The position numbers and the translations under genes were made by a program. The notes below the pieces were generated by a model. That model was not told the origin of the DNA and ran no database searches. It saw only the letters and a list, made by a program, of their open reading frames with translations. DNA of 62,568 nt, counting the filler, from Stramenopiles sp. TOSAG23-6 (lineage: Eukaryota), in the NCBI GenBank assembly GCA_900128565.1. It is 4 parts of 4 records of this genome, joined end to end, with 100 filler letters (N's around TTAATTAATTAA, not from the genome) between each part and the next. Parts side by side here need not be neighbours in the genome. Positions count along the whole stretch, not along the records: positions 1 to 15,661 come from LT636109.1; positions 15,762 to 31,375 come from LT636110.1; positions 31,476 to 46,984 come from LT636113.1; positions 47,085 to 62,568 come from LT636114.1. One strand, written 5' to 3'. Positions 1-62,568 of this stretch are shown piece after piece (the stretch's first letter is position 1; every line of letters starts with the position of its first letter).

Positions 1-161
1 ATTTATTTTTTTTTTCGTACGAAATTTTGTACCTAAACAAAAAAGATTTTTTTTTGAGTTTTTATTTCTATATGTTTCCATCATGAATTTCAAATTTATT
101 TTTTTTCATACGAAAATGTGTACCTAACACATTATACATTTTTTATTTTTTCACAATACAT
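1..161 (+). other. 3' part of a family intron ending CACAATACAT, with two internal modules
   Basis: Two T-run/CRTACGAAA/TGTACCTAA modules, then TCACAATACAT at 151-161 followed by an open frame. Confidence 0.75.
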
Positions 162-1195
162 GTCCTAACTGGTTTGATGAAAAAGATGAATGTGCACGAG
201 ACTTATTAACGACAGACTGTAGAGATAATCTACAATGTTCATTAGGATCATGCAAACCTCAATGTTATATTTGTTATTGGTTAGTAAAAAGTTTTCCTGT
301 TTTTGAAGAAATTTGCTCTCCAGTAACCCTAAAAAAAGAGTCATATACATCTGCTTTACAACAATCAAAAACTACATGGAAACTTAATGAAAAAGACTTT
401 TCAACACCAGATAATCCATATGAAAAACCTGGGTTAGGATCTGCAAAATTAGGGAAAGAATCATGGTCAAAATCACTGAAGTATTGTATGAGTATGTGGA
501 ATGAGTTTGTATACTCGCCAAAAGCAAGGTATACAATCCAATTTCGTGATTCATTTGGTAGCCATCCTTGGAGTGCTTCAACTGCATGTAAATGTATGTT
601 TTCATTATGATTTTTTTTATTATAAGAAACGCCCGATTCGTGTTTTCATCATGATTTTTTTTTTTAGTACAACATATTTTGTACCTAACGATAATGTATA
701 AAACAAACAATATTTTAGTACAATATATGTCTCGGTAAGTGTCCATATAATTCTTTTGAATCTTTAGATCTTTCTACACAATGTATTTATGAAGACAATG
801 CTGACCGAGCACTAAATTTATTTCCAGATTTGAATCCAGAATATTCAAATAGATACATTTGGGAAAAGAATCGGTATAATCCTGACCAGCAACAGGATAA
901 AAGTCCGTATGAACTACAAGTAGAATTTGCAAGATCAAAAAAACTAACAACACCAGATCCAGGTGCAGTGTACTCCACGTGGGATTTGACTGGAGCTGTA
1001 ACGGGAAAACAAAAAGCACAAAAACCTTTATTAGCAAGTGAACCAGGATTACATGCAATTGTTAATCCTCTTCTGGGAGTTCGACCTTGGGTGATGCTTC
1101 CTACTGGTGGTACAAATGATGAATCGACAATTAGAGATCCACAATTAAAAAATTCTCCTAGTAGTGAAGATGGCGTAAATGAGTTGGATACGTAA
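162..1195 (+). CDS. Cys-rich protein of unknown function, 5'-partial (exons 162-593, 729-1195)
   Basis: Open frame PNWFDEKDECARD...ASTACK. Removing the GT..AT intron 594-728 joins it to CLGKCPY...NPEYSNRY, the frame of ORF 830-1195. Confidence 0.65.
594..728 (+). other. GT-AT intron (family)
   Basis: GTATGTTTT...TTTTGTACCTAAC...CAATATAT; removal restores ACKCLGKCPY. Confidence 0.8.
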
Positions 1196-1285
1196 TCCTT
1201 TATAATATATTTTTTCATGTATGTACTATGAAACAAATGATTTCTCTTTGATACAATTTTATTTTTTCGTAGTAAAAATAGCTTT

Positions 1286-2853
1286 TCAATAACCTTCTAT
1301 ATTGTATAAATCTATATTTGAAGATTTTTCATCATCCCATTGACCATTTACTTCACCACCTGAATTAAACCAATCTGGGTTTTGATCCCTTCTATGTTGT
1401 TTTGGTATACAAGGACCATTCTGTGTACCAATAGATGATGCTGTCTCTTCTAAAGCCATACGCATACATCTAGCTGACCATATAGACATATCTCGAGGAA
1501 CATTTATGTATGATGAAAAAATATTTCAAAAAAAAAAATTTTGAAAATTTGTTAGGTACAAAATTTTTATAAAAAACAAAATTGGAATTTGAAAAAAAAT
1601 AACAACATACATTCTATCTCGGAGATATCGCAAAGCTGCATCAGTACCTGCAACACAAGAAGAAGGAGGAACGACTGCAGTATTTGTAAGTAAATTTGTA
1701 ATAACGCATCGGAGACCAACGTCTACAGATTTTCTCATCTCTTCTGACATATTATTGACTCCTCGCAAAGCCGCATCAATACAAGCGTTTCGATGTCGGT
1801 ATACCCTTGCCACAGCTAAAATTTTAGCATCATCAGGTTCCGGGTAACCACAGTCAATACAATGCTCTTTACTATCAACGATTGTCGGATGTACACATTC
1901 ATCAATATGTAGCTTACATGCCTGTTGGTATTTGTCTCCACTTTCATAACATCCACCCATCTGTGGTGGTAAATCATGAGCATGTGTATGAAAATCAGAT
2001 TGGATCGATATACACTGTGAAAAATATTTTTTTTTTTTGGATAAAAATTGGTTAGGTACAAATTTTCTTATGAAAAAAAATAATAATCTCGAAATATTTT
2101 GAAAAAAACGTACTTATACACAGGCCGACTTTCTAATGCTTCAAACCAATCCGAAATACCAGGGAAATCGTCTTTATTTCTTAGATGGAATCCTTTATAA
2201 TAATACAATGATGCGTTCATTCTTTCCATATATGGAACAAAAATTGTATCAACTATAGAAAACCCTGAAGATAGAAAAAAAGAGGAGGAAGAACTAGCGA
2301 GAACCTTATCAACTACTTGAGCAATACGAGTGAACTGAAGTCTTCCATTATTTTCATTGGTCTGCCTATAACACAACCATTGACACCAAGCTGAAAAAAG
2401 AGCCCGCTCTAACTTACGTAGTTTAATTACTTCTTTCGAATGCATTGATGGTGGAGTAACTGCATCACCCATTGTTCCAAAAGTCTCTTCTAACTTGGAG
2501 AGAATTACGTCAGACTCAGTGATGAGCTCTCCGTCTATTTCTAAAGCTGGAAGCATTCCCGAGCGAACTTTTTTTTTGAACCATCTTTCCTTATTACCAT
2601 AACAAAACATTGTTACTTTCGATACTCGGTATGGGACACGCTTTTCTTCCAACCAAAACCAAATTTTCTGACAGTATGGACACCATGCATGGTTATCTCT
2701 GTAGAGAGTGACTCGAACACTACTTTTACTTTTCCCAAACAAACGTAATCTAGACTGGGAAGAAGCAGGTCCATTTAACAAATCATGTGAAATGTTGCTT
2801 CTTTGTATGATTGACTTAATCGCATTCCATGCCAAAGGTACATTTGAAGACAT
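1286..2853 (-). CDS. Glutathione S-transferase family protein (cyanobacterial/algal type); exons 2853-2114, 2009-1611, 1505-1286
   Basis: Motifs [22 protein letters not shown] and SGMLPALE; spliced junctions [26 protein letters not shown] and [14 protein letters not shown]-terminal HRRDQNP. Confidence 0.85.
1506..1610 (-). other. GT-AT intron (family)
   Basis: GTATGTTG...TGTACCTAAC...CATCATACAT; removal restores [11 protein letters not shown]. Confidence 0.88.
2010..2113 (-). other. GT-AT intron (family)
   Basis: GTACGTTTT...TGTACCTAAC...CACAGTGTAT. The AT end gives the QSDFHTH frame; the AG 5 nt upstream does not. Confidence 0.85.
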
Positions 2854-3115
2854 TGCTTTGGAAATTGAATTAAGGCTATATAAGTTGTGTTCTATATTTA
2901 TCTTTGTGTGCTGTGCTGGTATGCTGCCTTGTTCCCCATCAGCTGATGTTTCAATTCTTGGCCAAAAAATGGCCAAAAATTCATCACACAAACCTGTTTT
3001 TTATAGGTCAACGAATATTTTTTTGAGAGTCAGCACTCAGCAGTCTCAAAAGTCAAGTGTAGTGTACACTTGAACCCTCACACACCCTGAAGGAATCATT
3101 CGCTAGTACGGCATC

Positions 3116-6100
3116 ATGGATGGTTCTCTAAAAGGGTTAACTCAAGGTAATAAAGGTCACTTTGGTCCTAAAGCTGGAGCAAAAGCAGCGAAGAAGAAGG
3201 CCTATAAAGATAAAAAGGCTGGTAAAGTTGGTCGCACTGAAAATGAGAAGCGTCAAAATCACAAAGCATTTGGCGTTGCTAACTATGGTCGAGTTCACCG
3301 AACTATTCAACGAAATAACGATCTCCGTCACCGTACTGAGGTTGTTGGTGCTCAAGATCGTAACAATGCAGCTGAAAAACTTAATCCTCCCGTNGTTGTT
3401 GTTGTCATGGGTCNAGCTGGTTGTGGTAAGTCAACTTTAGTGAAGTCGTTAGTCAAAAAATGGACAAACCAAACGTTGACGGACATCCGTGGTCCAATTA
3501 ACGTCGTTGTTGGTAAAAAAAGAAGAGTTACTTTGTACGAGTGTCCTTCTAATGATACAAATGCTATGATTGATCTAGCAAAGGTTGCTGATTTAGTTCT
3601 ATTAATGATTGATGCAAGTTTTGGGTTTGAAATGGAAACGTTCGAGTTTCTCAATGTTCTTCAAGTACATGGATTTCCAAAGGTATTGGGAGTTCTCACT
3701 CATTTGGATAAATTTCGTGTAAGTAAACGTCTTCAGAAAAGGAAAAAGAATCTTAAAACACGTTTTTGGACTGAAATTTATCAAGGCGCTAAATTATTTT
3801 ATCTTTCTGGTTTGGTGAATGGAAGATATCCGAAAAACGAAATTCATAATTTATCACTTTTTGTCAGTCGCATTAAATTTCGACCATTGTCTTGGCGTAA
3901 TACTCACCCATATGTTCTTGTTGATCGTTTTGAAGATGTTACTCCATCAGGGAAGATTGTGGAGGATGATACCATTTCGAGAACAGTGACAATGTATGGT
4001 TATGTTCGTGGAACAAATTTGAAGCCTGGTATGAAATTCCATGTACCAGGTGCAGGAGATTTTTTTCTCAAAACTGTTGCAAAAATGCCTGATCCATGTC
4101 CTTTACCTGCAATAGGAAAAGATAAAGATGGTAAAGTAATCCGAAAGAAATTAGGAGAAAAAGACGTTTTGATCTACGCCCCAATGTCTAATGTACGTTT
4201 TCATCATTTTAATTTCAATTTTTTTTTCATAGAAAATTTTGTACCTAACAATTTTTTTTCCAAAAAAAAAAAAAATATTTTTTCACAATACATATGGGCT
4301 CTGTTTTGTATGACCAGGACGCTGTATATATAGATGTACCTAAAATTAATTTTTCTCATAAAAGAGATCTCGTTCAAGAAGAAAAAAGTGAAGAAGAAAA
4401 TGAGAATTCGGATTCTTCTGAAGAGGATAGTTCTGAAGATGATGATGATGATGATGATGATCGTGTTGGTATTTCACTTGTAAAGAGGCTTCAAAAAGTA
4501 GATGACGATTTGCAAGATAGCATGCAATCTTCCGGTATTAGTCTTATTCGTGGGTCAAAAGAAATTGTTGATGATGATTCGAGTGATGATTCTAATGATG
4601 ATTCAAGTGATGATTCAAGTGATGATTCTAATGATGATTCTAATGAAACTGAACATCCAAAGATGTCGCGAAAGGAAAAGCGGCAAGCTAGAGCAGCCTT
4701 ACATCAAAAGAATAAAGACAAAAATGATGAAAAAGAGATTAAAAATGAATATGATATCATTCGCTCTCAATTATCAAATCTTGATAAAACATTGAGTGGT
4801 CGTACAACAAAAACAACAACAAAACACGATGAAGATTCTAATTCTGTGACAGATAAAGGCATTGACTGGAAATCTGCGTTGGCGGAGTCTGCAGCTGCCA
4901 CTTACTTAGATCGTATTTGTAGTAAAGTTGATTTAATGAAACTAGTGTATGGTGATTACGAGAGTATTCGTTCGTTTGGAGGTAAACGCAGTAAAAGTCC
5001 AAGTAATAAAGACGATGTATCGCCTTCAAAAAAAATTAAAAATCTATTTGATGCTTCGGATGAGAGTGACTCTGAAGAAGATAATTTCTTTACATTAAAA
5101 ACAAAACAAAATAAGGATTGTGGTACACCATCCCAGAGTACATGTAAGAATGATGATATCGATGGATATCTCAATGCTGATGCATTTGATTGTTCTCGTT
5201 TTATTATGCATCAAAAAGATTTTCAATCCTGGGAGGAGCACGAAATCCGTGAATCAATACGTGATAAATTTGTTACAGGCACTTGGAAAGATCCAAATGA
5301 AGATTCAGATTCTGATGATGACGATGTATCAGACTCAGGTTCTGTATGTTTTATTTTTTTCAAATTCGTTTTTTTTTTCGTACGAAGTTTTGTACCTAAC
5401 ATTTTTTTTTTGAAATATTTTTCCAAAATACATGTGGCTTTAGGTGATTGGGAAGACATGGAAGCAGATGTTCTCAATACTGTAGCACGTATTCGTAAGA
5501 AAGCAAATGGTGAAGACGATGATTCAGAATGTGAAGGTGATTTTGAAGATATTGAAGAAAGTCCTACCTCAGGTATAAGTAAATCTCCTGATGTTGTTGT
5601 TGATGATGATGATTCAATGTCAGAAAGCGACGAAGAAGCAGATGCTACTGTCGATGATAACTATGAAGGTGCTGCGTCTAATGATACTAGTTGGCGTGAT
5701 GCTCGTGACAGGAGGCGGGCGGAGAAGGCCGAAGCTCTTAAAGCCCTCAAAACCAAAAAGAAGGAAGAATTCGATGCTGCTTATGATCGTGGTAAGGCAG
5801 ATGAAGGTCCTGAAGTTTTAGATGAATTTAGTCGTGTGATGGCTGAAGCAACGAATCAACAAGCTATAATTAATGCAAATGAATTTGAAGATGAAAATGA
5901 AGAAACTAGAATATTACTGGAAGGCTTTAAAGCAGGTATGTACGTTCGTCTTGAGTTAGAAGGAGTCCCGTGTGAATTTATTAAACATTACAAACACAAT
6001 TCGCCTATTATTTTGGGAGGTCTCCTGGCACACGAACAAGCTTTAGGTCTAATGCAAATTCGATTAAAGGCTCACCGCTGGTATCCGAAACGTTTGAAAT

Positions 6101-9472: not shown

Positions 9473-12127
9473 ATGTTCTATAAAAATGGTCAGGAAATTT
9501 CTGGTAGTGATCGAAAGCCCTTTTCAGAGTTGTCCCCATCTAATGAAGCGTGGGGAAAGAATGTTTCTTCAGGTTATGGTTCACAAAGCGTCAACAAGAA
9601 AAGTTCGTGGGAGCCTGCATATTTACAGAAAGTTGCATCTAGTATAGGTATTATTCCACAATCTTGGCGGAAAAATAAAAAGATATCTGTAGAAGAGAGA
9701 ATGAAAAGAAACAAAATTAGAGGTTCAATTACAAAAGGTTTTGCTTTGCTTCGAAAGTTGCAACGAACTCGAGAAAATATTTCAGCGCGTCGCCGATTTC
9801 TGCTGTGGAAATACAACACTGGTGAAGGCCACATACCCAAACAGCGTTCAGCGTTATCTCTATTTCTTTTCGGCGGAGGTTCATCCAATGAAAAATACTC
9901 GAACTTTTTACTTTCAAAAAAAGAAACAACAAAAAAAAGAAAGCCCTTGCAAAAATCCAATGAAAAATCCTCGATTTTTTTACTTTCAAGAAAAGAAACA
10001 ACAAAGAAAAGAAAGCCCTTAAAAAAAGTATTATTTTCTCCGCAGAAAGGGACATTTCCCCAAACAAACACTACTGTAGATTCCCAATCAAAACTAAATT
10101 GTCCAGTAGAAGAATCATCTTCTCAAGAACGCCATTCATTATTATCATCCTCAAATCGACTTTATTTGACATTATTATCATTGACTTCGAAAGGTGTTAC
10201 TATTTGCGCCTTGGACAAAGGGAAACAAGCGATTTCGTTATTGACTTTATTATGGCGCATACTCAGAGTACAAAATGAATTACGAAAAGGTAGATTTGGT
10301 AACAGTAATAAGACCTCAATACGAGGTGTTGCTCAATTAGTTGGATTGTGGGTCGCACTCGCTGTGGCAGAAAAAATAGGACGATCTCTTCCACTTGGAA
10401 AACTTCGAAATCAGTGGCAAAAGAAAGCTTTTTTGTTAATTAGCCCAGCTAAAAGAAGAATCAGCCTCTCTTTACAATATGTCAATAGAATTGTTCATAC
10501 AATACAAACACCTGCAAAGAAAATATTCCAAACGCCATCACGAATATTTAATTCACTTTGGTTAACAAACACTAAAAACACTACACCGAATGATCATCTA
10601 ACACCTATTATGAACAATAGTTTTAATTGTATAATGACTACAAAAGATGATATAGCCCCGGTATCGAGTAAAACCACAGGGTTTGATTCAAGTAGAAATT
10701 CTCGTATAACACCACGAATTCATTTCAACGACCTTATATCGACTCCGATACAGTTTCGACATTTTGAATCTCCAGATGTATTAGGTACGAAATGTGGTAC
10801 AAATTCATTTTCAAATACTACAATCAACAAAAAAATCATTATGACACCTCTTGTAGCCAAAATACAATCTCTTGGGTGTAATATCAGAAAGCCCCTATAT
10901 GAAGAAGCCTCGGCTCTTTGTATTCAACGAAGTTGGAAAAATTATAAAAAAAGGAAAAATAGTATAGTTATAACAGATACAAATAAAACATATAAATCAT
11001 CTAAAACACCTGCATCAAAGTATCCTCATACACCAAGAACTGTCACAACTGTTGGATATTATACACCATGTACGTTTTATATGNANTTCTNANTTNANGN
11101 TTTTTTTTTCATACNAANTTTNGTACCTAACAATTTTTTTTTTTTTAAAATATTTTTTCACAATACATTCTCATTGAATAAGAAACGTCGCATACTTCAT
11201 CAACTTCGAACTACAGTAAAGAAACAAAAATACAATTCTGCAGTGTGTAGTATCATTTCTGGATGTGCTTATGATTCAGATGAGGAAAATGCTGATATTT
11301 TAGGACCAATTTTACTAAAAAAGCGAGAAGATGTTGAAAAATTGGAAAACGAATGGATGAACATTTGGAATGAAACACGAAAAACGCATAAAATACGTGA
11401 AACACAAAAACAACATTCTATGAAACAAGTTAAAAAAAAATATATATTTTCAGTATCGGAGTTTGTTTTACTATTGAAAAAAACGCGCAATTTTATTTTA
11501 TTGTTGTGCTTATCCATTGTTTGTTTTTATATAGTAATATATACAAATTGTAGAAGCTCATTTGAAACTGTGGTAAACGAGTTGGATGTATTGGAAAACA
11601 GAATTTCAAAACGTTCAGCAAATGAAAATGTTAAAGACATTTCATTTCTTATTGCCATGAAGACGATTGCTGTACCAATGCTTAGTAGTTGTGCGTCTAC
11701 ATTAGGGATATTTTCGTACTTTGACAAATTTGGTTCGATTGTAACTAGTGTATTAAATAATAGTAGCAAATTAGATGAGAATAGAAACAGGAATATTGAA
11801 AAGGTAAATGGGAGATTTCTACTTGATAAAAGCGTAACAGATGCTTCCAGTATAGCACAAAAATATATCGTTCATCCTTTTCTATTTATAGTATTTCACA
11901 CTTTATCAATAACAAATGTAATGATTATAACAACTGGTACATTAGCACAAAATGTTTCAGAGTATGTTCATATTGTATCATATAATCTGACAAAATTCAT
12001 GGAAAAACAAATTTTACCTTTTATTAATTCATACAATACGAGAGTATTAAGTACGTCAGTAAGTATATTCGTAGTATCCATTTTTATTAGTCTACACATT
12101 TTTCAACTTCGAGCTCGATTTAGTTAG
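9473..12127 (+). CDS. Unknown protein with an IQ-like motif and C-terminal hydrophobic segments (intron 11070-11168)
   Basis: 884-codon ORF; ALCIQRSWKNY IQ-like motif; contains an in-frame family intron. Confidence 0.65.
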   Translation: MFYKNGQEISGSDRKPFSELSPSNEAWGKNVSSGYGSQSVNKKSSWEPAYLQKVASSIGIIPQSWRKNKKISVEERMKRNKIRGSITKGFALLRKLQRTRENISARRRFLLWKYNTGEGHIPKQRSALSLFLFGGGSSNEKYSNFLLSKKETTKKRKPLQKSNEKSSIFLLSRKETTKKRKPLKKVLFSPQKGTFPQTNTTVDSQSKLNCPVEESSSQERHSLLSSSNRLYLTLLSLTSKGVTICALDKGKQAISLLTLLWRILRVQNELRKGRFGNSNKTSIRGVAQLVGLWVALAVAEKIGRSLPLGKLRNQWQKKAFLLISPAKRRISLSLQYVNRIVHTIQTPAKKIFQTPSRIFNSLWLTNTKNTTPNDHLTPIMNNSFNCIMTTKDDIAPVSSKTTGFDSSRNSRITPRIHFNDLISTPIQFRHFESPDVLGTKCGTNSFSNTTINKKIIMTPLVAKIQSLGCNIRKPLYEEASALCIQRSWKNYKKRKNSIVITDTNKTYKSSKTPASKYPHTPRTVTTVGYYTPCTFYMXFXXXXFFFIXXXVPNNFFFFKIFFHNTFSLNKKRRILHQLRTTVKKQKYNSAVCSIISGCAYDSDEENADILGPILLKKREDVEKLENEWMNIWNETRKTHKIRETQKQHSMKQVKKKYIFSVSEFVLLLKKTRNFILLLCLSIVCFYIVIYTNCRSSFETVVNELDVLENRISKRSANENVKDISFLIAMKTIAVPMLSSCASTLGIFSYFDKFGSIVTSVLNNSSKLDENRNRNIEKVNGRFLLDKSVTDASSIAQKYIVHPFLFIVFHTLSITNVMIITTGTLAQNVSEYVHIVSYNLTKFMEKQILPFINSYNTRVLSTSVSIFVVSIFISLHIFQLRARFS
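11070..11168 (+). other. GT-AT intron (family), 99 nt, in-frame
   Basis: GTACGTTTT...GTACCTAAC...CACAATACAT; contains several ambiguous bases. Confidence 0.8.
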
Positions 12128-12267: not shown

Positions 12268-15200
12268 TCATGAAGTTCCTGATAAAACCATCCACATATT
12301 ACGACACAAAGATGCTTCCGTTCGCACCGCTCGTTTTTTATCATTCAATACAGGGACGAGCTCCTTTACCACTCGGCGTCCCAACGGGTGGATTTGATGG
12401 TATGGTAGTAGTCGTATTGTTTTGATACAACGACACGCCTGCATACGAACTTTAGCTGTGACACCATTACAAGCAAGAAATAAAAGTGAAGAAGTCACTG
12501 AATCAACATGAGTAGCGATTGCATTCAGAGTCCGCATTCTAGCATCTTTATTAATATTTGATTCCTTTTGATCTGTTGGATTGGAATGAGTCAAATCTGA
12601 ACTAAATGAACGATGTTTTCGAGTTTTTCGTGTATCCATTGGAACTATAGTTTTCTTTGCATTAAGCAAAGCATCAAAACAAACTAATGCAGCAGAACGC
12701 ATAGTAATATCTATATGTTTGTCAGTTTCGCTAGATTTATATTTGGTGCCACCCAAAGCTTGTAAGAGCAAAGGCATTGCTTGTGACATTTCACTATTAG
12801 TAGTGGCACTTGGCATATTCGAAGTTGAATTTGTAGCAAATTTCTTACCTAACGAATTTCCCCCCAGCATTTTACTCACAAATATTGTACTAGGAATTTG
12901 TTGAAAAAGAAGTACGATTGCCAGAAGTACAGGATCTTGTACATCTCGCAATTTTGATTCAGAATCAAATAAAGATAATAGTTTAGTATATATATACTGG
13001 AAGTACTTCTGGCGGTATAAAACACGAATTCTAGCCCCTGTACATCTCTTTAAACAAGATGGTCCAGACACTTCTACATTTGAAATGATACATCCAATGT
13101 TATGCACGGCTTCTTTCCTAATTTCACTACAATGAGTTTCGGTATGTTTCGTTGTTTTACAAATATATGAGCACATCAAGTCGATCAGTGAAGTAGTCAA
13201 TGTATGGCTCCTCATAGCTAATGATTTAGCAACCCAAGATAAAGTTCGCATCGCCTTGGTACTATTTCTATTTTTAGCAGAAATCAATGATGTTAAACAA
13301 TGTACCACATCCGCTAAAATTGTTTCTAACTCAGTTCCTTTTGGCAACTTATTTAAAATCCCAGCTAACGTTTCTGCTGCTGAATTGGTAATTTTTTCAT
13401 CTGAAATAGAAGAGACTGATAATTTAAGTAAAGCCATAATCCCAGAAGATAATTGATGTGAGTCGTCCCAAAGATTTGATGATGTCGAATCATTCCCACG
13501 AAATACTTTTACAGCGCCAATAACTGAATGAACCAAAAGCATCAGCTGTAACTGCGACTTTGAGGATGTACTTTCTAAGGTTTCGATACCAAAGCCAGAA
13601 TGTTTATTATTTTTTACCAATAGACTGAATACAGTATCAACTAAATCCCATTGAGTAGATTGTGTCGAATGAACTGTGATTATATGCAGTATGGACGTAA
13701 TATGCGACATAATTTGAACTTGATTTCTATCTGTTTTATCAAACTCATCGGTTAATGCTCCATTATTAGCTAGTTCCACAAGAGATTCTATAAGAATGTA
13801 TGCAAGACTCTTTTGATTATTTCCAGCGCAAACTACTTTTGCTGAGGTGATTGACTTCATTAAATTTGATGCACTACAATCAGTTTTGCTTTCTTTTGAC
13901 AGACTTTTAGTAGACAGTTTTGTCGCTGCTTCAGCAATGATACAATGTAAAGCTTTAATAACAGCAGCAGCATCGTCACCACTAGCTAAACAACGGCGAG
14001 TATATTGATTCGAAACTTTCGTTTTTTTATGTGGAGAATATACTGTATCATCAGCCTTTGTAGCCTTTGTAGTATGTAACATTCTTTTTAAGAAAAAAGG
14101 TAATACAATATCAAATACGGAAGGTATTACACAAAGCTGACATAAAGCATTAAGTGAAGTTCTACTTGGTAAAGATGAAATTAATTTTGGTATAGCAAGA
14201 TCTATAACCATTTTTAAGTACATTTTGTCACATTTTGCCAGAGATAGGATTGTTAAACATGAATTATTTCTTAATTCTTTATCATCTATAATACGTTTTA
14301 CATCATTCGACGTTTGAATTATTGAAACATTTTCTGTACTGTTTCCCAACACTACTTGGACATTTTCTGTACTGTTTCCCAACACTACTTGGACCATAAT
14401 TTCAATAATCGTTTCAACGGACTCTTTTTCAAGAAGGGGCGATGAAGGTAATAAAAGTAATGAACACAAACCACGCAAACCTGCTTTTCTTGTAGCTAAT
14501 ATTGAATCTTTATGATTGGTTACCGTTTCCTGTTTCAACAAAGAATCATCATCATTATTATTACCTGTACAAGAACTACTAGAATTATCAGAATTATTCT
14601 TATTTCTGCCACAACATCCGCTATTTTCTGTAGGATTCGTCTTCTTTTTTTTACAATTATTCAGTGTATTTCGTGTTTCATGTGATAAACAATACGCCGA
14701 CGAAAATACAAAACGTAAATTATCTATAAATGGTGTAATAGGATTTTTCATTACACCCACATCAATTTCAGAGTCCATTTCAGATACAATATCTGCAAGA
14801 AATTCAATCGACGATCGATATACAATAAGATTTCCTGTTTTTGATTCTGTTGGCATTGCAGACATGGATTATGAAAAAATATTTCGAAATGATTTTTTTG
14901 TTAGGTACAAAATTACGTACGAAAAAAAAAATTCAAAATTGAAATGAAAACGAACGTGCAATGATCAAGGAACGAAGGGACGACAACAGGAATAACTCGA
15001 GCAAACGCTGTACACGACGCACTAGCAATAGCTCGTAACACACGGACAGAACATCGAGCATTCAAATGAGTTAACCTAACTATTTTTGTATTTTTTTTAT
15101 CATCACAATGACTACTATTAGATGTATCTGTATCAATTTTCATTCCATTAGGGTTAGGGTCATCAGACACTGGAGAAATTTCTCGACAACACCGTTTTAT

Positions 15201-15620
15201 TAAAGGGTTACAGAAAGTATTCCAAGCTTCTTCTCCAGAATGCATCGATATAGAAGACACTAGAGATTTCGTGATGATTTTTGTCAAAACACGAATTGTA
15301 TCCAATGTAGAATGAACCACATTTGACTCATCACCAGTAATTGATTCGGTATATAAGACACTTGCTAATTCAGGCAATCGTATGTATAGTGAAAATATAT
15401 ATATATTTTTTTTAGTACAAAAAATTCGTTAGGTACAAAATTTATCTACGAAAAAATAATATATTTGACATTCATGATGAAAACGTACAAATGCTTACAA
15501 AAAGATACTACAGAAAATCCGCTATACCCTGAATTAATACAATATTGCAACGTCTGTAGAGCATCAAGTTGAGCACTAATGACATTTGCTTGAATTTTTT
15601 CAATCAATAATTGAATCACC
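12268..15620 (-). CDS. MMS19: MMS19 (cytosolic Fe-S assembly HEAT-repeat protein), 5'-partial; exons 15620-15489, 15381-14956, 14863-12268
   Basis: C-terminus VRMQACRCI..LPYHQIHP...VVKELVPVLNDKKRAVRTEA...RNMW; upstream exon LLIEKIQANVISAQLDALQTL. Confidence 0.85.
14864..14955 (-). other. GT-AT intron (family, GTTCGT donor variant)
   Basis: GTTCGTTTT...CGTACG...TGTACCTAAC...CATAATCCAT; joins LDHCT-SAMPTE in frame. Confidence 0.82.
15382..15488 (-). other. GT-AT intron (family)
   Basis: GTACGTTTT...TGTACCTAAC...CACTATACAT; joins CKHL-RLPELAS. Confidence 0.82.
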
Positions 15621-15661
15621 ATGTATTTTGGAAAAATATTTCAAAAAAAAATCGTTAGGTA
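15621..15661 (-). other. 3' part of a family intron, truncated by contig end
   Basis: TACCTAAC...CCAAAATACAT followed by an MMS19 exon. Confidence 0.75.
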
Positions 15662-15761
15662 NNNNNNNNNNNNNNNNNNNNNNNNNNNNNNNNNNNNNNN
15701 NNNNNTTAATTAATTAANNNNNNNNNNNNNNNNNNNNNNNNNNNNNNNNNNNNNNNNNNNN
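15662..15761. other. Artificial contig linker (N-TTAATTAATTAA-N)
   Basis: 100-nt N spacer with an all-frame stop motif; the same construct occurs three times. Confidence 0.95.
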
Positions 15762-15786
15762 TCGAACACGAAGCTGCACTTTCTTT

Positions 15787-17085
15787 TTGTTTTTTTCATT
15801 CCACTCAACTACTACGTATATATTTCCTTTGCGTGCTCAAAAAACCATTGTCAACTGTAATACTATACTGACAGATAAAGGTTTTCCAGCCGAGATACAA
15901 TATGAGACTATGCCACTTGATACTACGCTATTTGAGTGTTACGAGGCATGTAGACGTAAAGAGTTGAACTGTGCTCATTTCACGTATGAAACAAGTCCAA
16001 ACAAATGTAAAATGTATCAACCTACAACCATCAGTTCAAATGCTATTCAACTTGCTGGTACAACAACAAACCTTTCAAATATTATTGAAATGCCTGGCAG
16101 TACAATATATTCATGTGGTTTCGGACTTCAATGTGACCCAGGATTAGGGAATATCTACGTGGATAAAGATAAATGTTTGTGCAAAAACAAAATAATTACG
16201 TCACATGAACCAGGAACACAAACTAACTGTAATTTAGGGCAGTATTGCTATGCAAATGGAACCTGCTCAAATGTGAAGAGAGGACGTAATTTAGTAGGTG
16301 ACACTGGCGATTACCATGTAGTCGGCCGAATAGTTATTTATGTGGTTTTGTTTTTTGCAATGATTTTACTTTGTGTAGTAACAGAGTTTGCGAAAAGAAA
16401 ATTTGAAAGAAGCGAAACTTTGAGCATTCTACTTGATATCGCTCTTCTTGCATTATACATAGTTGAACAGTTGACTGAATTTATTGAAATACCCGTAACT
16501 GGTATATTCCAGCGTTTGAATAATAGCATAGAGTTGGAACTGCGTATTGGTATATGGAAATCTTGTGCATTTTTTTATCAACATGGTGATATAAGGGCAA
16601 GGCAAATTGAAAAATGCTACTCTTCGTCAAGTATTTTCCCAGGTTTTGAAGGTAGTTTGGAAATGATTCTGATAGGGATTTTTATTAATATCTTAATTCT
16701 GTCGCTTATCATCAAATATTGTGTATCGTTTACAAAATTCTTTTCGAAATTAAAGCCGAAAATGATTCTTATCAATGCAAATTTACAAGTATTTGGTAAT
16801 TTGTTGATATTTGGCTTGTTTTTATCGACATATTTTGACATATTGGCCGTAAGATATCGAAAACCTGCTGAACCTTCTCATTTTAAAGTTGGTTTTTTTC
16901 TAAGTATTACATCGTTGCTTTTATCAATTGTAGCATTCACTCTTGATGTATTTTCTACTGAAAAATATATAGTAGTAAGTCCAATCCCAGATGAAGAGGA
17001 TCCAAAATCGGCAGTTGATGTTAAGTTGAAAATTACATCGGAGGGAGTAGTACCTGTGGTTACAGAAAGAAAAGACAAAAAATAA
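15787..17085 (+). CDS. Membrane protein with Cys-rich (PAN/apple-like) extracellular region and several TM helices; probably 5'-partial
   Basis: ECYEACRRKELNCAHFTY..CKMY pattern; about 5 hydrophobic segments; IGIWKSC motif reminiscent of claudin-like proteins. Confidence 0.6.
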   Translation: MFFSFHSTTTYIFPLRAQKTIVNCNTILTDKGFPAEIQYETMPLDTTLFECYEACRRKELNCAHFTYETSPNKCKMYQPTTISSNAIQLAGTTTNLSNIIEMPGSTIYSCGFGLQCDPGLGNIYVDKDKCLCKNKIITSHEPGTQTNCNLGQYCYANGTCSNVKRGRNLVGDTGDYHVVGRIVIYVVLFFAMILLCVVTEFAKRKFERSETLSILLDIALLALYIVEQLTEFIEIPVTGIFQRLNNSIELELRIGIWKSCAFFYQHGDIRARQIEKCYSSSSIFPGFEGSLEMILIGIFINILILSLIIKYCVSFTKFFSKLKPKMILINANLQVFGNLLIFGLFLSTYFDILAVRYRKPAEPSHFKVGFFLSITSLLLSIVAFTLDVFSTEKYIVVSPIPDEEDPKSAVDVKLKITSEGVVPVVTERKDKK

Positions 17086-17573
17086 AGTCGAAATTAAAAA
17101 AATTAGAGTGGTTACAGAAAGAAAAGACAAAAAATAAAGTCGAAATTAAAAAAAATAGAGTGTTCTAGAGCGCGCTCAAAATTTAAAAAAAAAAAAAATT
17201 AAGTCATTGAAATCGAAATCTCAAAATAATAAATTAATAATAATGATAATTTTAGTTTATCTATCAAATCTTAAAATTAAATTGATTGTAGAAACGCAGC
17301 AGAAACGCACCCACGAAAAATCTGGGATTTTCGTGGGTGTAGAAACCAACGTCCGTCCAGGTACCGGGTAACAACCCAAACCTTTCGAGCGCTTCGGCCC
17401 GGCGGCATTCAAATTTAAATTATTATTCCTCCGAAGAACGAGAAGTCGAAGTCTCTCGAAGAATTTTTTATCAAAAGTCCGCTATCTTGAAAAAAACATG
17501 TTCTTGATGTGAATAATGAAATATTGTGTTATGCAATCAATCTTATATATCCAAGTTATTTTGTTTGGTTTGA

Positions 17574-18041
17574 ATGATGCACGAGAATCCCGCTGATCCA
17601 AGAGTTCCTCGAGGTTATGTTGAGTGGAATGAAAAAAACAAAAAGAAAGTGCAGCTTCGTGTTCGACAGATAAAGAAACAAAGAAACAATCGAGAGAAAC
17701 AAAGACGATTGAGTACTACATCAACATCTAAAGAGAACAGTGAAAGGAAGACAAAGTCTAAATCTGAACATTTGTCGGAATATTTCAAAAAGAGACGAAA
17801 AAGTACCAAGGGCAAACCTAAAGAAGAATCAACTGCCGCCACTCCTTTTGATGATATTTCAGTATTTTTGCAAAACTTGAAGACATCAAGTCCATTCGTA
17901 TTTTACATGACTGCTACTACTATTACTTTATTACTGTTTTGGTTGTTTCTAGTGTTGCCATTGCAGAAACTTGATTTTATAAGTGCTACTATGCATTGTG
18001 TCTTTTTTTGTACTTGTTGCGTTGTAGTATATTTTTTCTAA
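17574..18041 (+). CDS. Small basic protein with C-terminal TM segments
   Basis: 155-codon ATG ORF with a K/R-rich N-terminus and hydrophobic C-terminus. Confidence 0.5.
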   Translation: MMHENPADPRVPRGYVEWNEKNKKKVQLRVRQIKKQRNNREKQRRLSTTSTSKENSERKTKSKSEHLSEYFKKRRKSTKGKPKEESTAATPFDDISVFLQNLKTSSPFVFYMTATTITLLLFWLFLVLPLQKLDFISATMHCVFFCTCCVVVYFF

Positions 18042-18082
18042 AAATCGGAAAAAAACTTTCTAAAAATTCTGCTTTATTAAAA

Positions 18083-41798: not shown

Positions 41799-42090
41799 AC
41801 AAAAGAAGATGAATCCGAAGAAGCTTTACTGGGTAAATATGCTTTTTAATAGTAATTAGAACTGGTACGTATATTGGAATTGGATTCTCTCTCACGTGTG
41901 TGTCATAAACAGCGCATCAAATCAATGCCACGTGTCATTTTGACTCGACGCGATTCGTCTTCAAAACTCAAAATGGCTTCTCGCTTCCTCTTCGACTTAA
42001 AAATTACATAGTAATAATTTTTCAACTCTCGTGTGTTATATTGTGGTTATTGTTTGTACCACGAGCTGAAGTTTATCACTCTTTGTGAGC

Positions 42091-46919: not shown

Positions 46920-46984
46920 GTATGTTTTATTTTTTTCAATTTCTAATTTATTTTTCGTACGAAATTTTGTACCTAACGATTTTT
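46920..46984 (+). other. 5' part of a family intron, truncated by contig end
   Basis: GTATGTTTT...CGTACGAAATTTTGTACCTAAC. Confidence 0.8.
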
Positions 46985-47084
46985 NNNNNNNNNNNNNNNN
47001 NNNNNNNNNNNNNNNNNNNNNNNNNNNNTTAATTAATTAANNNNNNNNNNNNNNNNNNNNNNNNNNNNNNNNNNNNNNNNNNNN
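46985..47084. other. Artificial contig linker
   Basis: N-TTAATTAATTAA-N. Confidence 0.95.
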
Positions 47085-56080: not shown

Positions 56081-58864
56081 ATGTCTCATTCATTCTTTGC
56101 TCTTCTTGTCATTATATTTACATGTATACCACATGATGCGGAAGCTTGCTATATGAATAAAGAGAGTGGCAAGTTTTGCTCTCACGCCGGATATTGTAAA
56201 CAGATGGTCTGTGAGTGTTGGAACGGATTCGAAGGTCCAGCTTGTGAAAAGAGAAAGTGTCCGATGGGTAAGGCTTGGGGTGATAGTGCCATTGGAGTAG
56301 ATGATGCTCATAATCTTGCTGTATGTTCTAATCGTGGTCATTGTAATACAGAAACAGGGTCTTGTGAGTGTTTACCCGGGTATGAGGGTGATTCATGTAA
56401 TAGACTTAGTTGTCCAGGTACTCCTGTATGCAATGGACACGGTCGTTGTCTTTCACAACAGCGCATGTCCCAGGAAATCTTTGACATGAAATATAACTTC
56501 TGGGATGCTGATATGATTTATGGATGTGTTTGTGATGACTTATGGGAAGGGTATGATTGTAGTTTACGTACATGTCCTACGGGAGACGACGTCATGTACG
56601 TTTTCCAAAATTGTTCAAAATTGGATGTAAAATATTTTTTTTTTTTTGAAAAACAAAACGTATCTAACAAAAACAACTTAATTTAAAATATATTTTCTAC
56701 AATACATGACAACTGAACAAGTAAATGAGATTCAATACATCAAATGTGATACACAAAATTCTGTATTTCAAAAGACACATTTTTATATAGGATTTCGTCG
56801 ACATTGGACAAGGGCCATACATTATGACGATTCTGAGGCAGATGTCACACGCAAATTAGAAGAGCTTCCATCAATCGAAAAAGTATTAGTTACTTTTCAA
56901 AATCAAAATGATTCTGCGAGTAAACGTGTCGTTGACCCAAACCAAGGTGAAATAAATGTACCAATGGCATGTGCAGATGATAAGAATGGAGATTCTAATA
57001 AAGAAGCACAGATTATTGCCATTCAATTCCTTCGCCAATTTGGTGATTTGCCTCCACTCATAGTAAGTTCGCCAACACCTCATGGCCCAACAGTCAGTGT
57101 TGCATGTAAGACTGAAAATATTTGGTTTCAATGTCCAAATGAAAAATTTGTTTTGACTTCTTCAGATGGTTCGACAAATTATGTACCAATTATGGGTACA
57201 AAAGAGGAATCTACGTGTGCTGGTCGAGGCTCTTGTGACACTTCTTCAGGAAATTGTACATGTTATTACCCTTTTCAATCATCTGATGGAGATGGTCCAA
57301 GAATACCAAAAGCAGATTCTCCACGAACTCCTAATGAAGGTATTAGGGGAGAATGTGGTTTTAAATCGCCAAATGGAGCTGTCTATACTTGCCCTGGGGA
57401 GATTCCATGTATGGGCCACGGTGTGTGTAGCTATGCGCCTCGATATGAGTGTCAATGTAACACAGGCTACACGGGTCCAGCATGCAATTTGAGAACGTGT
57501 CCTTATGGAAAGGCATGGTTTGGTGCACCGGAAGATGATCATAACTCACATGCTTTAATGGAATGTTCAAATCGAGGTATTTGTGAGAGAGATTCAGGTT
57601 TATGTTTTTGCCAAAGTATGTTTTCAGGAAATGCTTGTGATAATATGAAATGTCCGGTATCTTTAGAACAGGAAGATTTGGGAATGTGTTCAGGTCATGG
57701 CGATTGTATCTTTATGCATGAGATGGCAAAAATAGCATTAGATAATGGCGATGCTACGGACTATTCGTATGGCGACAAGCCATCTGACGAAAGTACTTGG
57801 GATTTCGATCAAGTGAAAGTGTGCTCTTGTGATCCAGGATTCACTGGTATTGATTGTTCTAAGCGAAAATGTCCTACCACTGATGACAAGAATACACCCG
57901 GATTCAATGAAGTTCAAGAAATCAAATGCGGTGTTGTGTATGTTTCATCACCTCAAGAAAACCTCGGTTGTTTTGATATTGCGCTTAATAAACGTCTTGG
58001 ATTTTATGGTCACTTAAACAATCAAGGAGATGATACTTTTGGCATTACTCTCACTGAACAAACTTTAAACTTTGCTTTAAATGCTTGCTTAGAAAAAGGA
58101 GCAGAATGTATTGGGGTTTTAAAATCACGTGAAACTGATTCGGAAGGAAACCTATTGGATCGAAAGGACGATGGAAGTTGGAGTTATGTATATGATTTAA
58201 GGAAGACTGGGTCCGGAGTTGAGCCAACACTTTATGATCAACCATTGGAAACTTCATATGTTCGAGCAGCATGTGAATACAGTTTATTTTTTCGGCAAAA
58301 GGAGACAAGAAAGTTTGATGTGACAACATCTCTTGATGAAGTCCAAGCGGAATTGAATAAATTAACAACAATTCATGGCGGTTTAGTCATTACAAATTAC
58401 GGAGACCCCAATGAAGGATTGTGTCCTCTTAATAAAAGTGGCGATTCAAAAATCAATACATGGAGAATTGAATTTAAAAAGACGCATGGTGATTTGCCAA
58501 AGGTGAAATTTCTAGGTAATGATTACGGTTTTATTGGATCAGATGATTATACTACAAACAATCCATTCTTACCTGCTACGGTGGAGGAAATTGTGAAAGG
58601 AACAAAAGAAAATGCTGAGTGTGGTAATCATGGATTGTGTAACTATAACACTGGCATGTGTGAATGTTATGATGTACGTTTTCATCCTTTAATTTCAATT
58701 TTTTTTTGTACCAAATTTTGTACCTAACAAATTTCGAATTTCAAATATTTTTCACAATATATGGTTATGCTGCATCTGACGGTGATGGTGGAAAAGGACC
58801 CATTGAAGATTGTGGATATAAAACACCATTTACTAGTGGTGGTGGTGATGATGATGATGAATAG
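56081..58864 (+). CDS. Secreted EGF-repeat protein, SIG1/Ocm1 mastigoneme-protein-like; exons 56081-56595, 56708-58673, 58763-58864
   Basis: Signal peptide; repeated CPxGKAW..AH..CSNRG.C...G.C.C, WD..C.CD..G.DCS.R.CP..DD units; spliced end CECYD-GYAASDG..DCGY. Confidence 0.8.
56596..56707 (+). other. GT-AT intron (family)
   Basis: GTACGTTTT...CGTATCTAAC...TACAATACAT; joins GDDVM-TTEQVNEIQ. Confidence 0.85.
58674..58762 (+). other. GT-AT intron (family)
   Basis: GTACGTTTT...TGTACCTAAC...CACAATATAT; removal restores CECYD-GY. Confidence 0.88.
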
Positions 58865-60148: not shown

Positions 60149-60456
60149 TCTGCTTCAATGTGCAGTTCTCTTCACGTCGTGCTACTCGTACCGAAGAGAT
60201 TAGTATACTAGAAAAAGAAATATAATAGCATTTCCTTGGCTTGGGTAAGCACGACGACACAATCCATGACTGGTCAAGCAAACGCAATTTTTGACATCCT
60301 CCTCTGATCGATCGATCTGGATGAGATTTTGATTGATGCTGCACTTCGACTTGACTTCGACTAAATATTATTTTAGTCGATTCTCTATTCCTATTGTGAT
60401 AACTAATTAGATTCCCATAGTTTAGATCTATACGTGGTAGATTTGTATTACTATCA

Positions 60457-62496
60457 ATGTCGGACGATAAAAGGTCCCCATCATTGAGTATCTCCACGTA
60501 TCCGAGTGCTACTAATGATGGACAAAGTTCTACCGAAAATAAACTGAAATCTCCTTGCACCCGAATTATGGAAAGCATGATCGACTCATACCCACCAGAG
60601 CTTCGGAAATTATTACAGCCAGGTCGGCGTAGTAGCTTATTATCTTCGTTACACGGAGACGAAGAGTCATTATTAGATAGTAACGATGAGTGTTCTCTAT
60701 CGCAGAATCCGTACAGAGAAAGTGATATCGATAGTCCAATTACAAAGAGTTTTCGCAAGCGTAATAATTTCCGTCGTTTACGTCGTGTGATTAGTTCAAG
60801 CTCTTCTGATGAGGAGGAGGACATGAAATCATGTAGTGATATCTATAATAATAAATATCCTACAAAAAACACGGAAAAGAGTTTTGTTGTTGGAAAATCT
60901 CCTTTTCAGAGAGACGAAACCTTACTTGCAATGGAAGATACAATAACAACGCAAATGGGTGATGGACCATGTCAAGTTCCAATACATTTGAAAAATAACG
61001 ATGTTTCCATGAGTGAGAATAGTTATGAATTTGATGAAAATTCTATTTCATCTAAAAGTGCAATACATGTCAGTGACCTGGAAGATGGACTGGAACGTTT
61101 AAAAATTGAGCAAAAGGAAAACGAAGCTGATGCTAATTTTATTGTCAGTGATAGTGATTTTAGTGCTTTAGAGGAATTACTCAGTGATAATGATCATCTA
61201 AATAGTAATAGTGATGATGATAATCATCTAAATAGTGATAGTAATGATCATTATCTAAATAGTAATAGTGATGATAATCATCTAAATAATAGTAACAATA
61301 GTAATAAAGATCATTATCTAAATGATAAGAGTAATAAAGATCATAATCTAAATGATAAGAGTAATAAAGATTATAATCTAAATGATAATAGTAATGATAC
61401 TATTGATTGCCAAAACAATATTAATGATATTAATAGTAATAGCCCAAAGTCGCCATTAAACCTTATAAAACTTGGTGTTATTAATCGCAAATTGTATGAT
61501 AAATTATTTCCACATCAACGGGATGGCGTTCTTTGGATTTGGAAGCATTGGCTAAAATGTCCACTTATTAAAGATGGTGGTGGTGGAGGTGTATTAGCTG
61601 ACGAGATGGGATTAGGAAAAACTGTCCAAACATCCGTTTTTATAGACATGTACATTTTCATTTCAATTTCGAAATTATTTTTTTTTTCGTACGAAATGTC
61701 GTACCTAACGATTTTTTTTTTTTAAATATTTTTTCATAATTCATGATATTCCGTCAACGTGAACTTGGTGAAATTTGTAATGGTGAAAAAACGTATTCTA
61801 ATGCAAGAGTTTTAATAGTTTTACCCAAATCTGTACTTGAACATTGGCGATCAACAGTAACTAAATGGTGTCCAACAAATCCTCTTCGAGTTGTTTTTCA
61901 TGTACATTTTCATGATTCATTTCAAAATTATTTTGTTTTTGTACTACAAAATATGTAATACCTAACGGTTTTTGTGTACCAAAAAAAAAAAAAAAAAAAA
62001 AAAAAAATATTTTTTCACAATGTAGGGTCAAAAAAAAAAGAGAGAAATGAGTTTGAATAATGTTGTTCGATTTGGAGGTATTTGTTTCACTACGTATGGT
62101 ATGTTACACCGAAGTGTTGATAAATTGTCTTTCCTTGATGAATTTGGTGACACAGATGAATCCTTGTATTGGGATTTAATTGTTCTTGATGAAGCGCAAA
62201 GAGTAAAAAATCCAGATAGTTTAGCAGCACGAGCATTGTTTAATATTCCCTCACGATTTCGGCTTTTGTTGACGGGTACGCCTATACAAAATAATTTAAT
62301 GGAAGGATGGGCTTTATTCGCACAGGCAGGGATTTCTCTTGGAGCAGGTAAGGAATTCCACGCTGATTTTGAATCGCCCATTAAAGCAGGTCTAAAAACT
62401 GATGCTGAACAGTTTTGTAAAAGAAGGGCTGAATTTTTATTAATCGAACTTCGCTCTTTACTTGAACCTTTTATTCTTCGGCGACTGAAAGCAAAT
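60457..62496 (+). CDS. SNF2-family ATPase, ERCC6L/PICH-like, 3'-partial; exons 60457-61649, 61745-61901, 62026-62496
   Basis: LYDKLFPHQRDGV, GGVLADEMGLGKTVQ, TTYGML, WDLIVLDEAQRVKN, LLTGTPIQNNLME, PFILRRLK. Confidence 0.88.
61650..61744 (+). other. GT-AT intron (family)
   Basis: GTACATTTT...CGTACGAAA..CGTACCTAAC...CATAATTCAT. Confidence 0.85.
61902..62025 (+). other. Family intron ending in canonical AG
   Basis: GTACATTTT...TACCTAAC...AAATATTTTTTCACAATGTAG; joins VVFH-GQKKKRE. Confidence 0.85.
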
Positions 62497-62568
62497 GTAC
62501 GTTTTCATTATGAATTTCGAATTTATTTTTTTTTCGTACGAAATTTTGTACCTAACAAATTTCGAATT
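62497..62568 (+). other. 5' part of a family intron at the window end
   Basis: GTACGTTTTCAT...CGTACGAAATTTTGTACCTAAC. Confidence 0.82.

Follow-up and report, generated by a model that had tools for sequence, protein, structure and literature searches.

A repeated family of probable GT-AT introns in the genome of a MAST-3-type marine stramenopile

The locus and its repeated elements

The window analysed here, that is the whole stretch of DNA under study, spans 62,568 nt of Stramenopiles sp. TOSAG23-6 and is made of four joined parts taken from four records. It is AT-rich (GC 0.30-0.40) and gene-dense, with long open reading frames (ORFs) on both strands, and about 30 copies of one short repeated element, nearly all beginning with GT and ending with AT, are spread over about 17 of its genes. 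Among the genes recognised with Pfam are those coding for BMS1, a G-alpha protein, MMS19, a NEK-type kinase, an MFS transporter, a VPS9-domain protein, an actin-related protein, Sec1, ODAD1, ankyrin and EGF repeat proteins, and an SNF2-type ATPase. The actin-related protein (ARP4) is identical, except for two spurious gaps, to a coding sequence labelled as coming from a MAST-3 data set, and shares 34-45% identity with the remaining listed database proteins. These comparisons also led us to reject a tunicate origin, which the resemblance to Fritillaria introns had brought to mind. Judging from this sequence identity, the organism is a MAST-3-type marine stramenopile, an origin that fits the presence of parts of the window in two seawater metatranscriptome runs from one sample (shares of 0.13 and 0.09).

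The repeat family is real and stands far above chance expectation. Its core, TTTGTACCTAAC, is matched 40 times in the window with at most two mismatches, against 7.5 matches expected, and none of 100 shuffles reached 40; likewise, the 3' box TTYCACAATACAT is found 34 times against 9.46 expected. In addition, an nhmmer profile built from nine copies gives 43 matches that collapse to about 30 places, thereby bearing out the original prediction of some 30 related elements belonging to one family. The resulting catalogue holds 23 complete copies of 89-142 nt, in agreement with the lower but not with the upper end of the predicted range of 89-148 nt. To these are added six incomplete copies, interrupted at assembly linkers, at the ends of the window or by truncation, a further one that lacks its 5' part but is in frame, and a diverged relative of 165 nt with AG at its end. 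The density amounts to 0.46 copies per kb. A 22-nt core was also searched in metagenome contigs and in genome contigs, with no match in either.

Each complete copy makes up a whole putative intron at a position unrelated to that of the others, and such an accumulation of many similar copies is what characterises introners. Pairwise identity among the copies has a median of 0.71 and reaches 0.90 between nearest neighbours. Besides, two subtypes can be distinguished in which the 5' and 3' variants are linked, GTATGTTTTATTTT...CCAAAATACAT on the one hand and GTACGTTTTCATCA...TCACAATACAT on the other. These linked subtypes and identities speak for the copying of whole elements and not for a convergence of signals. 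The longer copies at 20456-20589 (-), 27918-28059 (+) and 40068-40204 (+) owe their extra length to internal tandem duplications, and two of them carry a second branch box. The family also appears to have disturbed the assembly: the linkers of 100 nt (44 N, TTAATTAATTAA, 44 N) are found at 15662-15761, 31376-31475 and 46985-47084, and, as each of the three directly adjoins a cut copy, the assembly broke at the repeat.

As a separate observation, weak and short matches to the central part of the element were detected inside ORFs at 10773-10803 (-), 12819-12862 (+) and 22492-22540 (+), with E values from 0.005 to 0.0004. Two of these three are antisense to the gene, and they could be chance matches or old exonised fragments.

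Anatomy of the elements

At the 5' end, the copies share the consensus GTAYGTTT, and GT is present at 25 of the 26 readable ends, the exception being the copy at 70-161 (+), whose 5' end ATATGTTT is uncertain and whose 3' end reads CACAATACAT. At the 3' end, AT is found in 24 of 26 readable cases, GT in one (28122-28219) and AG in one (61902-62025), matching the 22 AT, one AG and one GT ends previously counted among complete copies. More precisely, the last triplet is CAT in 21 of the 26 and TAT in three. CTAAC is present in 21 of the 23 complete copies, within the box TTTGTACCTAAC that lies 30-59 nt from the 3' end and is followed by a T-rich stretch; the signal set of the family can be written as GTAYGT, a branch box also given as TACCTAAC, a T-run and (A)CAT. 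An extended GU 5' site, a branch consensus with its pyrimidine tract and a sense-only orientation are all shared with U2-type introns, the branch function being that of a candidate, and the 3' YAG of this intron type is missing, AG being present in one of 26 copies.

The orientation of the elements follows that of their hosts, as had been predicted: all 27 within-gene copies lie on the strand of the gene (P = 7e-9). This sense-only orientation points to removal from the transcript rather than from DNA.

Regarding the insertion sites, (C)AT precedes the element and G follows it in 13 of 24 copies each, a preference resembling the proto-splice sites described elsewhere. A 2-bp AT target-site duplication (TSD) was considered and ruled out, as the right end is AT in 22 of 24 copies whatever the left flank, which is itself AT in 13 of 24. 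In terms of transposon hallmarks, which apply to the DNA-transposon class only, neither TSDs nor terminal inverted repeats (TIRs) were found, the terminal complementarity being limited to about 5 bp.

Excision in silico from GT to AT restores the reading frames of the host genes

The original prediction held that excising the elements from GT to AT restores both frame and conserved motifs, and this holds at the level of the family as well as at individual junctions. The longest flanking open frames join in frame after such excision in 16 of 19 copies (P = 7e-6 for a chance rate of 1/3), a count made with the initial boundaries, two of the three misses corresponding to boundary offsets of 1-2 nt; in the third (58674-58762), frame 0 is joined to a short exon whose open frame has 33 codons. 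Conversely, retention would give stops or frameshifts in 16 of the 19 copies, and essential genes such as BMS1 are among the carriers, which sustains the earlier claim that the elements have to be removed.

Five junctions are colinear with homologues to the residue, namely those of BMS1, NEK and VPS9 and two in a GST-like gene. In BMS1, removal of the 101-nt copy at 4193-4293 (+, GT..AT) creates the junction APMSN|MGSVLYD, where the end of exon 1 corresponds to residue 340/341 of human BMS1 and the second residue of exon 2 aligns to G343. Environmental BMS1 loci agree: 25 of 80 could be read by the motif pattern in one frame, the remaining 55 not matching this pattern, and all 25 have four residues between YAPxS and the VLYD-type motif. 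BMS1 carries a second complete copy of 90 nt at 5344-5433 (+, GT..AT), which is open in frame if retained.

In the NEK gene, the copy within the kinase domain (20456-20589, -, GT..AT, 134 nt, with an internal 35-nt duplication) leaves ENKPY|TYKSDLW upon excision. Positions 1-174 of the Pkinase profile end at the last residue of exon 1 while positions 176-261 start at the second residue of exon 2, and three NEK relatives with 72-75% identity read SKPYSYKSD or NKPYSYKSD unbroken across the junction. As a side observation, the ORF of a further relative, P0126 (70% identity), ends in ENKPYV, exactly at the place of this intron (20589/20590), and its source may have an intron at the same site. In the VPS9 gene, the positions of the Pfam profile continue across the copy at 30122-30212 (-, GT..AT with the end GAACAT, 91 nt), with one junction codon.

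The GST-like gene was compared with 42 homologues. At its first junction, VYK|SIQSD, produced by excision of the 104-nt copy 2010-2113 (-, GTACG..GTGTAT), colinearity is preserved with all 42, whose residue at the junction is R in 19, L in 10, Q in 4, A in 4, M in 2, and T, I and K in one each. At the second one (1506-1610, -, GT..AT, 105 nt), the junction codon AT|A encodes I, the homologues having I (15) or V (15) among the 42. The junctions of BMS1 and NEK and the first one of the GST-like gene, like MLKT-M-GW, CECYD|GY and the three VPS9 introns, lie where they had been predicted, and the alignments to orthologues reveal no residue lost or gained with GT..AT boundaries in BMS1, NEK and VPS9.

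The possibility that nearby AG sites are used instead was evaluated in 18 copies, for all AG dinucleotides between the branch box and position 45 of the following exon. No in-frame AG exists in 10 of them. In the other eight, in-frame AGs would delete 7-15 residues, including MGSVLYDQ of BMS1 and 15 residues of the kinase domain, and a second candidate in NEK would add 11 residues from within the element. Such sites thus break the frame or delete conserved residues. Taken together, these comparisons support that the elements have to be removed, and exactly from GT to AT, since no other pair of boundaries is shared by all copies while leaving the colinearity with homologues intact.

A locus search based on BMS1, made with a view to comparing empty sites, gave relatives of 44-63% identity only. 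Besides, no proteins near-identical to the spliced forms were found for the NEK exon end and the middle GST exon within the length ranges searched, and cluster look-ups gave singletons.

Proposed interpretation and points against it

The explanation that best accounts for these data, and to which we give a probability of about 0.7, is that the nuclear genome of a MAST-3-type stramenopile hosts a family of spliceosomal introns resembling introners. Each copy would bring its own signals, namely a yeast-like 5' site GTAYGTTT, the branch box TTTGTACCTAAC, a T-rich tract and a fixed (A)CAT terminus. The copies would be transcribed within the host pre-mRNA and removed exactly, with GT as their first and AT as their last two bases, AU standing where other eukaryotes have AG. 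The same spliceosome would also handle AG ends, as suggested by one copy of the family and one neighbouring intron. Finally, the family would have spread by copying of whole elements into new gene sites, with a preference for (C)AT|G and no target-site duplication; reverse splicing or another route of direct insertion would fit this flank preference, reverse splicing being our guess. We infer from the genomic sequence that removal takes place at the RNA level by splicing, and that the spliceosome, the use of the branch box, the recognition of AU and the spread of copies are involved as outlined. In this respect, the original prediction is partly supported: the removal and the GT..AT boundaries stand, whereas the altered spliceosome it invoked is a putative explanation.

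A more far-reaching proposal, to which we lean only slightly, is that, throughout this MAST-3-type lineage of abundant and uncultured flagellates of the ocean, the major spliceosome normally accepts AU as the 3' dinucleotide, its 5' GU remaining strong and its branch box similar to that of yeast, and that this tolerance has co-evolved with an introner family that seeded GT-AT introns by the thousands, this figure being an extrapolation from 0.46 copies per kb to a genome of about 20 Mb. Fritillaria would then be joined by a second, independent genome-wide origin of 3' AU, and the family would be the first among known introners to spread an acceptor other than AG.

Few signals in eukaryotic gene expression are as fixed as the 3' AG, which in the catalytic centre is partnered with the first base of the intron. 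If the interpretation is true, the routine pairing of a 5' G with a 3' U in a protist would constitute a natural experiment on the tolerance of the second step of splicing, and would show how a 3' site is chosen without U2AF-type reading of AG. It would show as well that non-canonical acceptors can be carried by an introner family and thereby spread. In more practical terms, gene finders restricted to GT-AG mis-build genes here, and two database models in the window are visibly wrong. One is P0241, considered below; the other, P0002 (ARP4, 40494-41825, -), which likewise forces GT-AG introns, removes 19 and 35 residues from an uninterrupted ORF. It is therefore likely that gene counts and functional inventories underestimate or distort what this group of ocean grazers possesses.

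Several observations weigh against this interpretation. AT alone cannot define the 3' site, because further AT dinucleotides lie between the branch box and the 3' end, with an extra CAT inside the last 14 bases in four copies. The G-to-U terminal pair is chemically unusual. Moreover, the exon ends in AT in 13 of 24 copies, so that AT..AC boundaries would give the same mRNA there, and at the first junction of the GST-like gene the K obtained with GT..AT is not clearly better than the I obtained with a shift of -2. The assembly itself contains errors, as reflected by single Ns and a likely frameshift. The RNA data tell neither for nor against splicing: contigs from the two metatranscriptome runs were placed on 15762-31375, and among the 15 of 56 joints listed none skips an element. 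Contig X1 (record 8, 28180-28394), from an RNA library that may hold DNA, continues through 28219/28220 and through the 5' site at 28343 in unspliced form.

The same runs provide exon contigs with 0-2 differences and a depth of 2-8. The summed depth reaches 172-4123 in bins containing an element copy or a telomere-like repeat, against 0-12 in most other bins, so the element family is highly repeated in the material of these runs.

Alternative explanations

The most serious alternative, which we nevertheless hold to be unlikely, is that the elements are removed from RNA but at cut sites other than GT|..AT|, these sites being either two bases upstream (AT..AC) or set by pairing of the ends (AUGUA with UACAU), the latter as proposed for the non-canonical introns of euglenids, hemistasiids and Amoebophrya. 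The -2 register gives the same mRNA in the 13 of 24 copies that have AT before GT, and the terminal A-C pair found in AT-AC introns is known to be permitted (PMC13326754). In the 11 copies without AT upstream, however, this register would yield 5' ends such as CT, TT, AA, AC, AG and TC, while GT is invariant. The GT..AT register is favoured because GT does not change while the two preceding bases vary, and because the two AG-ending cases fit it (register 0): in the copy at 61902-62025, TAG occupies the position of the CAT of the others and is in phase with the following ORF, and the intron at 28343-28507 shows the same CAT|GTAT 5' context with a plain CAG 3' end. With the 5' cut at |GT, colinearity in turn places the 3' cut after AT.

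As to pairing of the ends, the last two exon bases and intron positions +1 to +3 can pair with the five bases that end the intron in 17, 18, 22, 20 and 20 of 22 copies, respectively, and seven of ten minimum-energy folds pair both ends. Yet the helix amounts to 3-5 bp, shows no covariation at +4 (9 of 22 paired), and the z-scores of the folds are significant in four of ten cases. Besides, this complementarity does not constitute independent evidence, because it follows from the consensus among related copies, and it is treated here as an observation and not as a mechanism. A structure-defined intron is rejected in view of the short pairing, the lack of covariation and the uniform termini. A U12-type intron is rejected as well, given the 5' GTAYGTTT and the distance of 30-59 nt between branch box and 3' end.

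It is improbable that cryptic canonical sites, for example the second GT present at +5 in every copy and an AG where one exists, serve in the splicing of some or many of the copies, to give mRNAs with a difference of a few codons. An in-frame GT-AG pair is available in copy 2010-2113, with a donor 4 nt inside the element and the acceptor CACAG, and is used by the database model P0241 (gene 1289-3000, -). This model nevertheless adds the residues YCI, found in 0 of 42 homologues, and also reads into the next element. The AG check reported above further argues against such sites, 10 of 18 copies having no in-frame AG up to +45 nt, and BMS1, NEK and VPS9 tolerate no gain or loss of residues.

Excision at the DNA level, in the manner of the internal eliminated sequences (IESs) of ciliates, with the sequenced DNA being the unprocessed form, is very improbable. 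It would account for short, AT-rich and precisely bounded inserts in coding DNA with a short terminal inverted repeat (ATGTA/TACAT), but DNA excision has no reason to follow the strand of the gene as all 27 copies do, and it leaves the branch box and the consensus at the 5' splice site of the copies without a role. A ciliate-type IES is rejected on account of this orientation and of the lack of TA or any other fixed flanking repeat; moreover, nuclear dimorphism is not known in stramenopiles.

Just as improbable is the view that the elements are not removed at all and that the genes have been broken by a transposon burst of recent date, or else by an artefact of amplification or assembly. It finds some support in the low assembly quality (Ns, linkers, likely frameshift) and in poor gene models of the published type, but it would leave about 20 genes in 62 kb dead, BMS1 included, although long intact ORFs flank every insert. 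Besides, the sense-only orientation and conserved ends argue for selection on removal, the copies are not new, given a median identity of 0.71, and identical or nearly identical exons (0-2 differences) as well as many element copies are present in contigs of independent runs.

Further copies and other features of the window

The remaining copies of this putative intron family are distributed as follows along the plus strand. At the very edge of the window, a partial copy (1-39) retains the T-run, CGTACGAAA and a branch box variant, TTTGTACCTAAA; a complete copy of 135 nt at 594-728 (GT..AT, ending in ATATAT) lies in phase 1, and another of 99 nt at 11070-11168 (GT..AT) contains single Ns. The MFS gene harbours two complete GT..AT copies, at 27752-27842 (91 nt) and 27918-28059 (142 nt, with an internal duplication and a second branch box), followed by the copy at 28122-28219 (GTACAA..ACGT), the only one to end in GT, for which the position-homologous acceptor is in frame and an AG located 14 nt downstream is out of frame. 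Further on in the same gene, the sequence at 28343-28507 (CCAT|GTATCTTTTCAT...TGTGTACCTGAC...CACAG|, GT..AG, 165 nt) is either a diverged relative or an ordinary intron, and a 5' half only is found at 28623-28690, past the MFS stop codons, in the 3' untranslated region or in intergenic DNA. The MFS gene as a whole (26531-28600, +) thus displays four introns with three kinds of 3' end (AT twice, GT and AG).

Still on the plus strand, a WW/G-patch-like gene contains a complete copy of 137 nt at 40068-40204 (GT..AT), with the branch variant CGTACGTAAG and the junction MLKT-M-GW, and a 5' part cut by an assembly linker is located at 46920-46984. The EGF-repeat gene carries a complete but more diverged copy of 112 nt at 56596-56707 (GT..AT) and a second complete one of 89 nt at 58674-58762 (GT..AT, ATATAT), whose junction reads CECYD|GY. 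In the SNF2-type gene, a complete copy of 95 nt at 61650-61744 (GTACAT..TTCAT) precedes the complete copy at 61902-62025 (+), which ends in CACAATGTAG, with AG in place of AT, and is in phase 0 into the ORF starting at 62026. A last 5' part, at 62497-62568, is cut by the window end.

On the minus strand, the MMS19 gene contains complete copies at 14864-14955 (GTTCG..CCAT, 92 nt) and 15382-15488 (GT..AT, 107 nt), and a 3' part at 15621-15661 is cut by an assembly linker. The tail of the NEK gene carries a complete copy of 96 nt at 19393-19488 (ACAT|GTATCTTTT..CACAATACAT). A 5'-truncated copy at 23604-23675 lies inside the ORF 22827-25037 and is open in frame. In addition to the copy in its domain, the VPS9 gene has complete copies at 30395-30498 (GT..AT, 104 nt) and 30731-30836 (CAG|GTATG..ACAT, 106 nt), as well as a 3' part at 31306-31375 cut by a linker. 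Finally, a DCAF15-like WD40 gene contains a complete GT..AT copy of 102 nt at 44926-45027.

Two stretches of the plus strand, 33440-33560 and 36700-37050, were considered as introns and rejected, as they are tandem repeats in coding DNA. Such repeats comprise a 52-nt duplication and a Q/P-rich array of 30-nt repeats (at these two places), and they cause overlapping ORF calls. In the Sec1-family gene, a frame shift at 42470-42510 (+) falls inside a conserved stretch (TKSA* versus KIFDQHLSF) without intron signals, and is probably a one-base assembly error at about 42480-42500. Scanning the window against Rfam at gathering thresholds gave no match, and a tRNA scan of the window found no gene.

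Another repeated motif of the window is TAGGGTTAGGG, which corresponds to two telomere-type units and occurs exactly 11 times against 0.32 expected, at 9302, 15149, 25250, 25268 and 34545 on the plus strand and at 26480, 27361, 27571, 29476, 39248 and 39876 on the minus strand. Part of these sites lie within ORFs and part are intergenic, and RNA-run contigs at 25249-25282 run on into longer GGGTTA repeats. The motif may represent a regulatory box, healed breaks, or the mapping of true telomere reads.

Comparison with known systems

The original prediction suggested that such introns may be undescribed for a lineage of this kind. This stands in part: the literature search yielded no report of GT-AT introners, nor of 3'-AT introns in MAST-3-type stramenopiles, but 3'-AT introns are known in Fritillaria (PMC13326754) and non-canonical introns of the introner type in Amoebophrya (PMC7789003). 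The main texts of the genome papers on MAST lineages hold nothing on splice sites (PMC5778133, PMC12614181, PMC8163842); in the main text of PMC5778133 the string 'splic' is absent and 'intron' appears twice, both times in the methods, and the corresponding count for PMC12614181 is zero. The comparisons drawn here and below refer to portions of the papers cited.

U12-type introns are characterised by the 5' sequence RTATCCTT and by a branch site, TCCTTAAC, located 10-26 nt from the 3' end. There is a faint likeness between this TCCTTAAC and the branch box ACCTAAC, but the 5' end of the elements is not RTATCCTT, GT is invariant, and the box lies 30-59 nt from the end with a T-run in between. 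With AT-AC introns of the U12 and U2 types (PMC13326754), the elements share a non-AG 3' end, the AT..AC register being formally possible in 13 of 24 copies.

Non-canonical introns are also abundant in other marine protists. Amoebophrya has introner elements that are non-canonical introns with pairing ends (PMC7789003), and in hemistasiid diplonemids non-canonical introns are defined by long pairing of their ends (PMC12621601). The present case resembles both, in that a marine protist is dominated by repeated or non-canonical introns whose ends can pair. It differs from what these sources describe, namely inverted repeats of 8-20 nt or extensive pairing in introns whose terminal dinucleotides are not fixed, by its uniform GT..AT ends and a pairing of 3-5 bp.

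The introners of Micromonas, Aureococcus and Symbiodinium are of the transposon type, with TSDs or TIRs, and often recruit a splice site from the TSD (PMC9860276). They have in common with the elements described here that short non-autonomous repeats produce bursts of intron gain in marine protists, but in the present family the right end stays AT whatever the left flank.

Fritillaria tunicates offer the closest parallel in terms of 3' ends, AT being the most frequent one, present in 44% of F. pellucida and 34% of F. borealis introns, with a last intron triplet YAY, a YAY often preceding the 5' site, and a uridine-rich tract (PMC13326754). Their introns are thought to derive from repeated mobile elements, for which TIRs and TSDs were reported (PMC11282704). 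The YAY triplet at the end (CAT or TAT in 24 of 26 copies), the uridine-rich tract and the presumed origin from a repeated element are shared by the family studied here; before the 5' site, YAY is found in 12 of 26 and NAT in 17 of 26 copies. In contrast, whereas Fritillaria introns are mainly AG/AC and AG/AT with many termini, GT is present here in 25 of 26 copies together with a strong GTAYGT and a clear CTAAC, and, unlike in PMC11282704, a TSD is excluded. Fritillaria, the only comparable case, has also changed its 5' ends. Since the two lineages, an animal and a stramenopile, are unrelated, the likeness would be convergent.

The introner-like elements of fungi reportedly lack transposon hallmarks. 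Within the introners, the class compared here is that of the 'direct insertion' introners of the Alternaria type (PMC9860276). Like these fungal elements, the family in the window consists of many copies of about 100 nt that are whole introns at unrelated gene positions, bring their own splice and branch sites, lie in the sense orientation, and show neither TSDs nor long TIRs. Introner families as surveyed in PMC9860276 have GY 5' ends and AG 3' ends, with rare GC and GA 5' sites; in the window, by contrast, 24 of 26 copies finish with AT, and the host is a heterotrophic stramenopile instead of a fungus. The finding combines two known kinds, introners and non-canonical 3'-AT introns, and is not a new category.

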